DNA from: Escherichia coli
GTDB taxonomy: Bacteria > Pseudomonadota > Gammaproteobacteria > Enterobacterales > Enterobacteriaceae
NCBI RefSeq assembly: GCF_050920415.1
Contig: NZ_CP169309.1
Length of the DNA stretch: 64,000 nt
Strand: one strand, 5' to 3'
Part shown: in pieces, positions 1,836-8,066 of the stretch
How positions within the stretch are numbered: position 1 is the first letter of the stretch
How the letters are laid out: each line of letters opens with the position of its first letter
Made by a program: the position numbers and the translations under genes
The notes under the pieces: model-generated
Databases searched by the model: none
Seen by the model: only the letters and a program-made list of their open reading frames with translations
What the model was told of the DNA's origin: nothing

Positions 1836-2656
1836 AGATGAATAAATCCGTCGTAGACATGTACCGCCGGCCCCGTCATATATAAGGGGTGACCCGGACC
1901 TTTCCAGGCGATATCAAGACGACCGCCGGGGAGTTCCACGCGTACTTCTTCGGCCAGCAAACCTTGCTGAATCCCTACCGCCACCGCCGCACACGCGCCG
2001 CTGCCGCAGGCCTGGGTTTCTCCTGCCCCACGCTCATAAACGCGTAAACGAATATGTTCGCGTTTAACCACTTGCATAAAACCGATATTGGCGCGCTCCG
2101 GAAAACGTTCGTGGCTTTCCAGAACAGGACCAAGCGTTTCTACCGCCGCAGTATCGACATCATCAACCTGAATCACGCAGTGCGGATTTCCCATCGACAC
2201 CACGCCGCATAAGATTGTCTGCTCGGCGGCGCGCATAATATAGGTCTTTTCCGCTTTGTTAGCGCGAAATGGCACGGCAGAAGGTTCGAAGTTGGGTTCG
2301 CCCATATTTACGCACACCAGATCGTCATCGGTGACGGTCAGAACCATCCGCCCGTTGGCAGTACTGACGCGGATATCGCGCTTATTGGTCAGCCCTTTCA
2401 GACGCACAAAACGGGCAAAGCAGCGCGCGCCGTTGCCGCACTGCGCTACTTCACTGCCATCAGCATTGAAAATGCGATAGTGAAAATCCAGTTCCGGATC
2501 ATACGGTGGCTCAACCACCAGCAGTTGGTCAAACCCTATCCCCAGGTGCCGATCCGCCAGGCGACGAATCAGTTCTGGTGAAAAAAAGACATTCTGCGTT
2601 ACCGCGTCGACGACCATAAAATCGTTGCCAAGGCCATGCATTTTCGAGAACTGCAT
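1832..2656 (-). CDS. dapF: Diaminopimelate epimerase DapF
   Basis: [22 protein letters not shown]...; start taken at second Met to give the canonical 274 aa; GNDF and catalytic Cys motifs present. Confidence 0.95.
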
Positions 2657-2692
2657 CATTTACTCCAATCACGCGGGTACAGAAACTGACTT

Positions 2693-2896
2693 TTAGTAAT
2701 TCACCTGGGATGGACCATCGCCAGTGGCGCGATCGTTTTTATCCGGCACCGTGGATTGCGTTTGCGTCTCTACCGGTTTGGTCGGTGGCGGTGCGTTTTT
2801 ATCTGCAGGCGGGAAATAGAGCGGACCTTTCAGACCGCAGCCCGTCAGGCTGAAGAGAGTAAGTAATACAGTGAGTGCCTTAAACACGTTTTTCAT
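2693..2896 (-). CDS. yifL: Small lipoprotein YifL
   Basis: 67-aa ORF with signal peptide and lipobox LTGC (MKNVFKALTVLLTLFSLTGCGLKG...), 36 bp upstream of dapF. Confidence 0.85.
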   Translation of the reverse strand: MKNVFKALTVLLTLFSLTGCGLKGPLYFPPADKNAPPPTKPVETQTQSTVPDKNDRATGDGPSQVNY

Positions 2897-3084
2897 TATG
2901 GATTGCCTGTAAAGTTCATCGCTTTCTGCTTTCTATCATCGCAGGAGAAGACGTAAAAGCAAGCGTTTAGCGACTCTTTATGAAGTCTGAAAAATGAGGA
3001 ATTGCTGCGAGTATAACGCTTACACGTGGGGATTTATGTTTTGCTGGTAGTTTCGTGATCGGCACCTCGCGCCAGGATGGCTTT

Positions 3085-5112
3085 ATGCACTATCGCAATG
3101 TGGTTTGTTTGTTGTCTTTTTTAGTTCCGTCAGCGTGGGGATGCTCGCTCGGTGAACCTGATCATAATATTTACCAGAAACAGGGAAAAGGCGTGGTATA
3201 CCTGCGCCCTAATGAAGAGACAAATCTTTCGTTACCGGAAGTAAATTACCAGCGACTGCGTCGTTTACCTGATTTATTCATTGCTCCTGACACCCAGGAC
3301 GATGGGGAAAAAGAACCGCCGTTAAACGACCTTACCACCGATTATATTGATCAGGGCGCATGGGCCTGGTATCCAAATTATGCTTACTTTAGCGATGGCC
3401 GTTTTGTCATTTATGCGGGCAAGATTGTACAAAATCCATCTGGTTATCCACCGGTCGATGTAGCCTCGTTCCATTCATGGGGCGATTTTGCCGTCGATAA
3501 AAACAGCATTTATTACAAAGGCCAACGGACAGATGAAAATGGCGGCAAGCAACGCGTCGATGAAAAAACGCTGCGCAAAGTAGGATTAGGTAGCCGTTGG
3601 ATGCCTGATCGGCTGGGATTGGTGCTACGTGACGCGCATTTTCTTTATATCGATGGGCACCGTTTTGATAACCCAGAGAGTTTTTCCGTGATCGCGCAAA
3701 AATCCTGGGGTCAACAAGGGAAATTCGCTTCAACGTTTTTTCCCTGCATTGCCTACCCCTTTGGCCCGTGGGATATGCTTACCCGCACACGAACAAAGTT
3801 GCTGATCAATGGAGAGCAACTGGATGCCGATCCGGACAATTTTTCTGTCGTTCGCTGGATGCCCGGCACCCTGTTTAGCTGGCGTGATAAACACGGCGAG
3901 CATCGTAAAGTCATTGATCAGGTTCGTTTGGCAAGGAATGAAGATATATCCCGGCAATGTGACAACTTTACGCTGTTAGAAAAAAAGGTGTTCTGGCGCA
4001 AGGGGCCAGATTGTGAGCAGGAAGAATTACCCAGTCTCGACCCGGAGCAGTTTCACCCGATCAGTGACATCGTGGCGCAGTATCAGGACAAGTTGTATGC
4101 AATCAGTAAGACCCCCTTCGGTGAAAATCAGTTGGAGATCATCACCCTGGATAACCCGAATCTGATCATCAATAAACGTTTTAATGCAGGAAGGCATCAT
4201 GGCTATTTACTCACCCGATCAACAAATTGGGACGGACATGAGAAAGACGGTTTACAGGTGTTTGAATCCGTTGGCCCACTGATACTGCTGGACTACCGTG
4301 TGCCGAATGAAGCAGATGCACACCGTGGCAATAACCCGCATTACAAAAAATGGTTTGCTCGCGACGATCGTTACGTTTATGCATTCGATGGTGCGCAGCT
4401 TTGGCGTTACCCTACGCAATATCCCAAAGCGGCACGTATCAAAGCCGCTAAAGACGACTGGCTGAACGTCAGCCTTAGCCAGTTGGACGGTGAGATAATG
4501 AAAGATGGCTCATTTACTCCCACTGGCATCAAGCACACATCCTCTTTAAAACCCGCCAAGGCATACGAAGATGGGGACAATGAATCTTCATTTATCGTAA
4601 ATAAATCGGGAGTAGGCTGGCGAAAAGCGCTTTCACCCGACCTGCAATGGAGTGAGTGGCATTACCTGGAAGGCATTGATCCAAAAAAGTTTCATCTGAT
4701 TACCGAACGTATTGCACAGTACAAAAACCAACTCTACGTCGTCAGGCGCTCGCATTTTGGAGAAGATCGGCTCGAAATCATAGAGTTGGAGTCATCTTTG
4801 CCCATCAAAAATAAACCGATAAATACGGGCAAGGAGCGTCATTACTTTCTGCAAAGTACCCGACAAAAACAGGATGTGCAGGTATTCACCAGCAGCGGTG
4901 CGCTGATAGCAACGGAGCGCTTTGCTTATGACGATAGCTATGTCTACACCTGGATTGACGATCAGCTTTATCGCACACCCTCCCCCTGCCCAGCGAAAAC
5001 ATACGTCAGAGAAAAGAATGTCCGTGAAATTCATAACAGCGACATTATTATTCCGGTGACGGAGGAATCGTGCCGGAACGCAGCAGCAGACGGGCAAACT
5101 TTGAAGCCCTGA
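3085..5112 (+). CDS. Hypothetical secreted/lipoprotein-like repeat protein (675 aa from ATG 3085; 685 aa if the in-frame GTG at 3055 is used); strain-variable gene absent from K-12 at this locus
   Basis: Uninterrupted ~2 kb ORF; AGGA Shine-Dalgarno 8 nt before ATG 3085; N-terminus MHYRNVVCLLSFLVPSAWG|C looks like a signal peptide with possible lipobox Cys; internal ~110-aa tandem duplication and recurring D-x-x-SF...W-G / DKNSIYY / DDRYVY / DDSYVY motifs; host-like codon usage by eye. Confidence 0.75.
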   Translation: MHYRNVVCLLSFLVPSAWGCSLGEPDHNIYQKQGKGVVYLRPNEETNLSLPEVNYQRLRRLPDLFIAPDTQDDGEKEPPLNDLTTDYIDQGAWAWYPNYAYFSDGRFVIYAGKIVQNPSGYPPVDVASFHSWGDFAVDKNSIYYKGQRTDENGGKQRVDEKTLRKVGLGSRWMPDRLGLVLRDAHFLYIDGHRFDNPESFSVIAQKSWGQQGKFASTFFPCIAYPFGPWDMLTRTRTKLLINGEQLDADPDNFSVVRWMPGTLFSWRDKHGEHRKVIDQVRLARNEDISRQCDNFTLLEKKVFWRKGPDCEQEELPSLDPEQFHPISDIVAQYQDKLYAISKTPFGENQLEIITLDNPNLIINKRFNAGRHHGYLLTRSTNWDGHEKDGLQVFESVGPLILLDYRVPNEADAHRGNNPHYKKWFARDDRYVYAFDGAQLWRYPTQYPKAARIKAAKDDWLNVSLSQLDGEIMKDGSFTPTGIKHTSSLKPAKAYEDGDNESSFIVNKSGVGWRKALSPDLQWSEWHYLEGIDPKKFHLITERIAQYKNQLYVVRRSHFGEDRLEIIELESSLPIKNKPINTGKERHYFLQSTRQKQDVQVFTSSGALIATERFAYDDSYVYTWIDDQLYRTPSPCPAKTYVREKNVREIHNSDIIIPVTEESCRNAAADGQTLKP

Positions 5113-5129
5113 CACCATGCCGCTATACT
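5101..5129 (+). promoter_or_regulatory. Putative sigma70 promoter for cyaY (TTGAAG-N17-TATACT); -35 overlaps last codons of the upstream accessory ORF
   Basis: Hexamers read directly from sequence: ttgaag at 5101-5106, 17-nt spacer, tatact at 5124-5129, about 30 nt before cyaY ATG (5160). Not experimentally known to me. Confidence 0.35.
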
Positions 5130-5159
5130 GCCGCCATCACTTAAAAACAGGATACAACA

Positions 5160-5480
5160 ATGAACGACAGTGAATTTCATCGCCTGGCTGATCAACTGTG
5201 GCTGACCATTGAAGAGCGTCTGGACGACTGGGATGGCGACAGCGATATCGACTGCGAAATCAACGGCGGTGTGCTGACCATTACCTTTGAAAATGGCAGC
5301 AAAATCATTATCAACCGTCAGGAACCGCTGCACCAGGTTTGGCTGGCAACCAAACAGGGCGGCTACCATTTTGATCTGAAAGGTGACGAATGGATTTGCG
5401 ACCGTAGCGGTGAAACCTTCTGGGATTTGCTGGAACAGGCGGCAACGCAGCAGGCCGGTGAAACAGTCAGTTTCCGCTAA
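5160..5480 (+). CDS. cyaY: Frataxin homologue CyaY (iron-sulfur cluster assembly)
   Basis: 106-aa [76 protein letters not shown]..., recognised as CyaY. Confidence 0.95.
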
Positions 5481-5519
5481 GATTGCATGCCGGATAAGCC
5501 TCGCTGTCCGGCACGCTCA

Positions 5520-8066
5520 TCACGAAAAATACTGCTGTAATAGCGGCGTGTCGTGATCCTGATTGGCAGGCGGCATGTTACCGATAGATTTGGTGCGGAA
5601 CGGAATCACCTGTTCACGACCATCAACCTTCACAATCTGATAGAACTGCGGCAGGTTGAAGTTGATGAAGCTTGAGCCGTAGGTAAAACGGTCGTGCGAT
5701 GACGAGTAGAAGCGACTGACGTCACGCACCAGCTCCTCTTTGCTGCCTTCGCAGTGGTGATACACCTCAACCCGGTTGCTTTCGTCGAGAATGTAGATAT
5801 TAAAGCCATTCTCGTCTTGCGTTTCTTCGAAGAAGAACTGGATGATCCCTTCGCTGGCAAAGCCGTCCACCACCGCCGGTAATTTGACGTGATTGGTTTC
5901 AACCTGCACTGACAGGCCGTGCAGTTTGTTATGCGAAATAGCGCCATAAAACTCGATGGCATTTTCCAGTTTCTGTACCGATACATTCAGCCGTTCGAAG
6001 AACAACCCCCAGGTTTGACCAGAAACGCGCAGCGCCTTGAAGCGCCCTGTTTCCTGACGGGTGCTGGACAGACGCAGTTCAATACACTCAGAAACCAGTT
6101 GCTGCACGCGAGTACGGATTAATCCGCGCAGATGCTGGCTGTAGCAGAAGACTTCCACGCTATCTGGCGGTGCGGCGTCCTGATGCATTTTGCCGAGAAT
6201 AGTTTTCAGGGCTTCGATCATCGATTGCTCGCCGTTGAAGTGCAGCGTACGCACTTCGTTCCACGAGTTGCGGTACAGCAGGTCCACGCTACCTACCAGG
6301 CAATTTTGGTTTTCGCCAAAGCTGAAGACGTCCAGCTTACGGAAATCAAAATGCACCACCTGATTGCGGAACGCAGCTGTCGGGTCATATTCCAGGTTAA
6401 CGATAATCGCCAGATGGCGAATTTCACACGGGCTGTAGAGCGCTTTTGGCGTCGGTGCAGGCAGGCGCAGCGGGAAATGGTGCGACACATCGGCGACCAT
6501 CTCCTGCAACTTAGGCAAATCGACAATGCCGTTGCCTTTAATATACAAGCGGGTGCGCGAGGTCAGCAGGCCGTTAAACCATGCCCACGCCACCAGTTTA
6601 TTAAGGTAACGGTTATATTCCAGCGGCTGATGGCTGATGATCGACTCAATATTTGGCGCGCGGTTATACAGATACCAACCTGAACGGTTAGCCCGGCCCG
6701 GCGGCACATAAATAAAGGTCAGATTCGGTTCCGAGAGATCGGGCGAAATCTGCGGGTTTACCAGCGTCACTTTACCTGGCAATGCTTCAAACGCGGCGTA
6801 CAGTTTACGCGTCAGCACGCCGATATCCTGCGGACTGGCAGAGACGCTAAGGTTATTGCGACGCGCAAAGCGGATCAGATTGCGGTAGCTCTGCATCATT
6901 GCATCGAGCAGTTCGTTGTGCGCCTCGCGCACCTGATCAATCTTCCAGTTAGCGCGGTTATCGAGCATTGCCAGACGAGCATCGTCCCATTCCCACTCTT
7001 TCACTAACTGGGTTAGCACTTCACGACGCCAGCCTACACAGGCGCGTTCACGGCTGAGTTTTTCGCACACTTTTAAATAGAAGCAGCGACGCACTAAATC
7101 CAGACGGGTGAAATCTTCAATCGCCGTCAGGTACTCAGTAACACGCTCCAGCATCATGCAGTACGGATCGAGACCAAACGATACAATCTCGCCGTCGTGC
7201 AAACGCTGTTTGATATCTTTCGCCAGCAGACGTGGGTTCGGGTATTCCCAGGAATAGGCTTCCAGCAGTAGTGTTTTCAGCACCGCTTTGTATGGGGAAT
7301 CGATACTCTTATAGAGCTGCCAAAGGCTGGCACCAAAGTACTCTTCGGCAGAAAGTGAGCTTAAGCCGCCGAGATCCAGCCATTCATTAGGAGTAAGCAC
7401 GCCCTGCGCGTAAAGCGTCATCACATAGTCGTCGTAATGCTCTTCTTCGTCACACGGCACCATATTCCACAGAATACGTTTACCGGCGAGACGCACGGCG
7501 GTACGATAAAATTCGTCAAGCAGCAGTATATGCTGGGTGGAGCCACAATCTTCGCCCCCCAGGCTGCCGCTTTCATTATGACGGAAGCGATTTTCATCAA
7601 TCAGGAAGAAGCTAACTTCCACGCCCAGCGAGGCGGCCCAGCTTTCCAGCAGGCTGCATTTACGTTGTAGTAACTGGCGCTCTTCGCTATCAAGCCAGGA
7701 TTGATGACAGACCCAGATATCCAGGTCAGAGGAACAACTTTGCCCTACGGACGAGGTGCTGCCCATGGTGTATACACCAGTAATTGGAAGCTCACCTTTC
7801 GGCGGATCCTGTACTGACATTCCACGATACAGTTCAAGCTCGTTCAGGTAGTGGCGTTGAGTTTCATCAGGCGTGTAAAGGCAAATGCCTTTGGGAACGT
7901 TACCATCAAGGTAGCCCGGCATTAGCGGATGGTGATAGTGCAACAATGTCGGCAGTAGACTGTAGACCTGTTGGAATGCAGGCCCCATAGCAGCAAGCGC
8001 GCGATCCACACGCAATTGATTTATGGCATCCAGTCTCTGTTTCAGAGTCTCAATATAGAGGTACAA
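5520..8066 (-). CDS. cyaA: Adenylate cyclase CyaA (class I), TTG start
   Basis: 848-aa [38 protein letters not shown]...; start codon is TTG (plus-strand caa at 8064-8066), as known for cyaA. Confidence 0.95.

Follow-up and report, generated by a model that had tools for sequence, protein, structure and literature searches.

The DNA analysed here, referred to below as the window, is a stretch of 64,000 nucleotides from the chromosome of Escherichia coli, and over positions 2600-5600 it is 100% identical to strain MFDS1022581. The genes along the locus are arranged in the order xerC, yigA, dapF, lptM, an accessory open reading frame (ORF), cyaY, cyaA and hemC, with lptM and cyaA on the minus strand and the accessory ORF and cyaY on the plus strand. 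The lptM gene (also named yifL; 2693-2896, minus strand), recognised as an ORF and from the lptM annotation in the identical RefSeq record, forms the conserved left flank and is divergent from cyaY. The cyaY gene (5160-5480, plus strand) begins with an ATG at 5160 and encodes the frataxin homologue of 106 aa. At its other end, the stop codons of cyaY and cyaA converge across a gap of 39 nt (5481-5519), and the inverted repeat found in this gap, GCCGGA (5489-5494)/TCCGGC (5508-5513), has no T-run and, on its sequence alone, the appearance of a REP-like hairpin.

The accessory ORF (3085-5112, plus strand) encodes a protein of 675 aa, or of 685 aa if translation is counted from a GTG at 3055, and is annotated by PGAP as the hypothetical protein WP_001361096.1. 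The protein carries an N-terminal signal-like segment and internal repeats and is predicted to be mainly beta-strand. It shares a DKN-x-x-YY-like motif and a weak profile match with the DKNYY family (PF13644). However, its score of 18.2 bits is below the gathering threshold of 25 bits, whereas three paralogues from other E. coli strains reach 25.1-26.5 bits; the family name is applied by PGAP to some of the paralogues, while the window protein itself stays under the threshold. Searches with the accessory ORF against NCBIfam, PADLOC and the PDB sequences gave no match. The AF2 model of the protein is poor (mean pLDDT of 65, pTM of 0.49), and a Foldseek search of PDB with it returned only repetitive beta-rich proteins, at a TM score of ~0.1 and an rmsd of >18 Å, so that these matches carry no information on the fold.

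Among complete E. coli genomes, the single-ORF allele of the window is rare, and only 5 of 5,426 cover at least 80% of a 3-kb query, while one or more full-length genes are present at the site in about one quarter to one third of the genomes, as estimated from spread samples. Most intact alleles carry a tandem pair of paralogues, of 489-502 and 437-438 aa. The ORF of the window aligns to the N-terminal ~440 aa of the first gene and the C-terminal ~165 aa of the second gene of such a two-gene allele, and similar long single genes, with 60% identity over the full length, were found in E. albertii and Pseudocitrobacter vendiensis. In some of the E. coli alleles, a DUF3304 gene is also present, upstream of the DKNYY genes (locus L003, 1147-1701; L087, 1102-1656; L086, 1-404); the window allele is without it. 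DUF3304 is the domain of the Tli1 immunity lipoproteins, which act against the Tle1 phospholipases of type VI secretion (T6SS), and its presence in some alleles is a hint that the products of the block are periplasmic or orphan-immunity proteins.

The accessory DNA is absent from relatives in which both flanks of the lptM-cyaY spacer are conserved, as is expected of an accessory insertion. The G+C content of the block, 47-49% compared with 53-55% in the flanks, is only mildly lower, and no integrase or transposase ORF was found among the ORFs of the block. A pair of candidate direct repeats at the island ends (2971-2991 and 5096-5114) was rejected, because its local alignment score of 6.0 stood against a mean of 5.9 in shuffled sequences.

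The promoter in front of cyaY

The stop codon of the accessory ORF is separated from the ATG of cyaY by a gap of 47 nt (5113-5159). Reading of the sequence and a consensus scan both place a sigma-70-like promoter across this junction, on the plus strand. Its -35 hexamer, TTGAAG (5101-5106, 4/6 matches to the consensus), consists of the Leu (5101-5103) and Lys (5104-5106) codons of the ORF, whose C-terminus reads ...Q-T-L-K-P*, and the TGA stop codon of the ORF (5110-5112) lies within the spacer of 17 nt (ccctgacaccatgccgc, 5107-5123). The -10 hexamer, TATACT (5124-5129), matches the consensus at 5/6 positions and is followed by a G+C-rich discriminator, GCCGCC (5130-5135), which shows 1.1-1.5 bits of conservation across species. 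The predicted transcription start is the A at 5136, 7 nt past the -10 hexamer and 24 nt 5' of the ATG, at the position that corresponds to a 5' end at -24 in K-12; a Shine-Dalgarno sequence, AGGA (5149-5152), can be read 7 nt 5' of the ATG. The positions that a preliminary description had assigned to TTGAAG-N17-TATACT, to the ORF stop codon and to the 47-bp gap were all found to be exact when the sequence was read again.

The base preceding the -10 hexamer, at -13, is a C (GCTATACT, 5123-5129), the base that sigma-S prefers there, and among 80 anchored sequences this position is occupied by T in 44 and by C in 31. A search of Rfam with 2600-5700 revealed no RNA-element match at E <= 1. Another candidate, GTGAAA-16-TATTAT (5024-5051), was rejected as a conserved promoter: its -35 lies inside the segment deleted in K-12, and its -10 reads CATTAT there.

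TATACT has the A at position 2 and the T at position 6 that are expected of a sigma-70 -10 hexamer, TTGAAG lies within the spacing of 16-18 nt, and the combination scored 9/12 matches in the consensus scan. Over the 3.1 kb of 2600-5700, 4 promoter-like sites were observed and 3.7 +/- 2.0 were found in shuffled sequences, which is the level of chance. Because the bare motif occurs at chance frequency, the case for a promoter rests on other evidence, namely where the motif lies with respect to cyaY, a 5' end published for K-12, and conservation.

The published 5' end comes from Mendoza-Vargas 2009 (PLoS One 4:e7526; PMC2760140), in which Table S1 lists a 5' end of cyaY at -24 in K-12 MG1655. The row gives the method as HTPS (454) and the class as 10/35_S70, which attributes the promoter to sigma-70, assigns tgcaAACTTTGAAgccc as the -35 and tgccGCTATACTgccg as the -10, and is marked 'New'; the paper states that its data entered RegulonDB. 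The matrix used in that study sets the -35 one nt leftward, as TTTGAA with a spacer of 18. Position -24 in K-12 is the A seven nt after TATACT, which is 5136 in the window. Thus, the start that had been predicted near 5136 in the preliminary description agrees with the K-12 end, to which the same boxes were assigned. The method of that study does not distinguish primary from processed 5' ends, and we take the value of 1 in the count column for cyaY (3 and 5 in two cyaA rows) to be apparently a single read. In the searchable parts of the transcription start supplements of Ettwiller 2016, Yan 2018, Kim 2012, Cho 2014 and Cervantes-Rivera 2020 (Shigella), no match to cyaY, b3807 or the coordinate was present, and the sole match in Romero 2014 was an unrelated coordinate and not a cyaY start. 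In addition, a lacZ fusion to the cyaY promoter shows activity in K-12 BW25113 (PMC11302051), with the fragment described only as the 'cyaY promoter region'.

These data identify the promoter of the window as the already known, ordinary cyaY promoter mapped in K-12. The window and K-12 MG1655 share the -35 box, the -10 box and the start position at -24, which in the window is a predicted one. They differ upstream of the -35, where K-12 has a dead remnant of 77 nt and the window has the 3' end of an intact ORF of 675 aa. Unlike in MG1655, the -35 of the window doubles as coding sequence, and transcription from upstream could enter the promoter.

The deletion in K-12-type strains

K-12 (C600 and MG1655) aligns to positions 2600-3235 and 5036-5600 of the window and to nothing between them, as revealed by blastn against C600 and a base-by-base check of the junction. 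The segment missing in K-12-type strains (3236-5035) is internal to the ORF, and the deletion joins position 3235 to position 5036. K-12 retains ~180 nt of the 5' end of the ORF, annotated by PGAP as a frameshifted 'DKNYY family protein' pseudogene, and the last 77 nt (5036-5112, plus strand), kept as non-coding DNA 5' of cyaY. Since these last 77 nt were kept, the whole promoter was retained: 65 nt separate the end of the deletion from the -35 downstream of it, both hexamers are identical to those of the window, and the spacer shows a single difference, A5115C. The deletion junction is present in at least 2,485 of the 5,426 complete E. coli genomes.

The lptM-cyaY spacer of K-12 is therefore a deletion scar and not the uninserted state. 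Relative to K-12, the ORF of the window is not an insertion; it is K-12 that carries an internal deletion sparing both ends of the gene. The preliminary description had offered, as the first of two alternatives, that the boundary of an indel preserved the cyaY promoter. This alternative holds, with the boundary 65 nt upstream of the -35 and the hexamers kept. The junction alignment that it had asked for located the exact boundary at 3235/5036 and did not place the K-12 cyaY promoter elsewhere.

The deletion also touches yzcX (b3808, 161 aa; NC_000913.3, 3993850-3994335), which is antisense to the 5' half of cyaY and its promoter. In a paper from 2025, the pair cyaY-yzcX is given as a 'divergent excludon'. 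In K-12, yzcX crosses the deletion junction (~3994183/4), and this form is confined to strains that bear the deletion; in the window, the same frame (5031-5369, minus strand) reaches a stop at 5031 and encodes 112 aa. Since the scar lies within yzcX, the form of 161 aa is probably artefactual and due to the deletion.

Conservation and variation across Enterobacteriaceae

The cyaY loci from 80 Enterobacteriaceae species were compared. An exact TATACT was found 27-31 nt (38 nt in one case) 5' of the ATG in 79 of the 80 species, and GCCGCC-A is conserved directly after it across species. The A at the predicted +1 occurs in 74 of 80 anchored sequences (79 species and the window) and is the best-conserved base outside the hexamer. 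The sequence 5' of the -10 hexamer is not conserved family-wide. In 50 of the 80 species, lptM and cyaY are separated by only 135-139 bp, and the short-spacer species carry CTGCAA (3/6 matches) in 33 cases and CTGCGC (2/6 matches) in 9 at the position of the -35. When the window is aligned with the short spacer, the homology of the flanks stops at ~2973 and restarts at CGC-TATACT, at ~5121. Because the homology restarts only there, the -35 and the spacer of Escherichia are located in DNA absent from the short-spacer species, and the older boundary, relative to genera without the gene, is by this alignment no more than a few nt away from the -10 hexamer. Besides Escherichia, DKNYY-type genes or their remnants were detected in the spacer of Pseudocitrobacter vendiensis, Citrobacter sp. 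FP75, Phytobacter diazotrophicus, Kosakonia sp. S29, Superficieibacter and Atlantibacter hermannii.

Among the species that share the right end of the block, TTGAAG or TTGATG is present at exactly 17 nt from the -10 in 9 of 9. The mean pairwise identity of 9 island alleles is 0.46-0.75 in the last 130 nt of the ORF compared with 0.91-0.92 from ~5100, and from there through the leader it resembles that of cyaY itself. The conserved block (5094-5159, plus strand), which runs from GGGCAAACTTTGAAG to the end of the 5' UTR, has an identity of ~0.91 among these alleles. Within E. coli, the promoter and leader of 68 nt are identical in 4,495 of the 5,426 complete genomes and show 1-3 mismatches in 926 more; this species-wide identity mostly reflects recent common ancestry.

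These patterns bear on the idea that TTGAAG/TATACT is a chance motif and that the conservation of 5094-5129 results from constraint on the coding of the C-terminus or marks a recombination breakpoint. The motif is as dense in shuffled sequences, the conserved block begins inside the ORF, and the step in identity could mark a conserved flank that was exchanged together with cyaY. However, TATACT is found in 79 of the 80 species, most of which are without the ORF, and the block is unchanged in K-12-type strains, which have only a pseudogene in place of the ORF. The ORF of Phytobacter ends at 3926, and downstream of its stop, in non-coding DNA, TTGATG-17-TATACT is found. In addition, the mapped 5' end is exactly 7 nt after the hexamer. 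We therefore consider a chance motif to be highly improbable.

A different question is whether the -35 matters at all. The promoter could be driven by its -10 or depend on an activator, with TTGAAG carried along as a passenger. The short-spacer species have only CTGCAA or CTGCGC at this position, and unrelated DNA extends up to the -10 in both Klebsiella michiganensis and E. coli 23CRST031. The latter strain carries an extra gene for a hypothetical protein of 141 aa (L086, 3529-4010) after two DKNYY genes, and its similarity to the window begins exactly at TATACT, which makes it a natural variant without TTGAAG. In 23CRST031 and ~17 other genomes among the 5,426, the -35 segment is missing and the -10 is kept, so the -35 may be dispensable. 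Nevertheless, the -10 is not of the TG extended type, since CGC, CGT or GGT precedes TATACT, and TTGA(A/T)G has been kept at exactly 17 nt across island lineages with differing spacers and coding ends. A passenger -35 thus appears unlikely, though less so than a chance motif.

Taken together, it is very probable that 5101-5129 is the core sigma-70 promoter of cyaY; its -35 lies in the end of a variable gene, and the K-12 deletion spared it. RNA polymerase would recognise the -35 TTGAAG and the -10 TATACT and would start at A5136, giving a leader of 24 nt in which AGGA would serve for ribosome binding. Ancestral Enterobacteriaceae sequence makes up the -10, the discriminator rich in G+C and the leader, while the -35 and the spacer belong to the terminal ~30 nt of the variable DKNYY-type block of Escherichia and a few other lineages; this location of the -35 explains its overlap with two of the last sense codons of the gene. 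K-12-type strains have lost the interior of the gene, 3236-5035, and kept its last 77 nt. We infer that the same start, 5136, is used in the strain of the window, that the promoter owes part of its strength to the -35, and that the discriminator plays a role in regulation.

Upstream cargo and transcription of cyaY

In strains with an intact ORF, cyaY might be expressed mainly from read-through transcripts that originate upstream, and the TTGAAG/TATACT promoter would then be minor or occluded. The ORF and cyaY lie on the same strand with a gap of only 47 nt, in which a scan detected no terminator-like site (5113-5159), and 5060-5175 folds as RNA no better than shuffled sequences do (z = +1.14), with no stable hairpin. 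In addition, every cargo gene at this site in 12 species is co-oriented with cyaY, and in K. michiganensis the -35 that follows the cargo is poor. On the other hand, the promoter is intact in the window, and its hexamers equal those of K-12, for which a 5' end at -24 is mapped although the ORF is defunct; moreover, the scan gave no promoter-like site between lptM and the start of the ORF. Read-through as the main source of cyaY transcripts is thus possible but rather less probable than the alternative of a working promoter at 5101-5129. Co-transcription of the ORF and cyaY in island-bearing strains would be plausible, and read-through and the internal promoter are not mutually exclusive and may coexist.

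The cargo at the lptM-cyaY spacer differs between lineages. In K. michiganensis (L058, 610-3956) and K. spallanzanii (L064), the spacer holds two genes for MFS transporters; the homology to the short-spacer K. oxytoca restarts in both at GCGC-TATACT, 4 nt before the hexamer, and no good -35 follows the MFS cargo. The cargos that end within a few nt of TATACT therefore comprise DKNYY genes with or without DUF3304, two MFS transporters, and the 141-aa gene of 23CRST031. Because they end so close to TATACT, each would replace the -35 and may add read-through, and by this means frataxin dosage could vary between strains according to the upstream cargo. It is a tentative and somewhat doubtful proposal that the spacer is a hotspot of cargo swapping, with selection at the cyaY -10 holding its right edge in place and with frataxin dosage varying.

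Hybrid promoters are known from insertion sequences: with elements such as IS1, IS2 and IS10, a -10 that was already in place acquires its -35 from the end of the element that has inserted. The cyaY promoter resembles these in that its -10 is an old resident and its -35 lies in DNA absent from the short-spacer genomes. Unlike in the IS cases, this site contains neither an IS nor a transposase, an integrase or a significant terminal repeat, and the block, which is ancient, is spread widely through Escherichia by vertical descent.

For work on these strains, a deletion of the DKNYY gene or of its K-12 remnant should leave a minimum of 20 nt in place at the end of the ORF, because the -35 of cyaY would otherwise be lost. 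For the biology of E. coli, the finding is that the annotated cyaY promoter of K-12 is intact where the full upstream gene is present, which matters little. What is added is only descriptive: the K-12 scar spared the promoter, and the -35 of Escherichia lies in variable DNA that abuts a deeply conserved -10.
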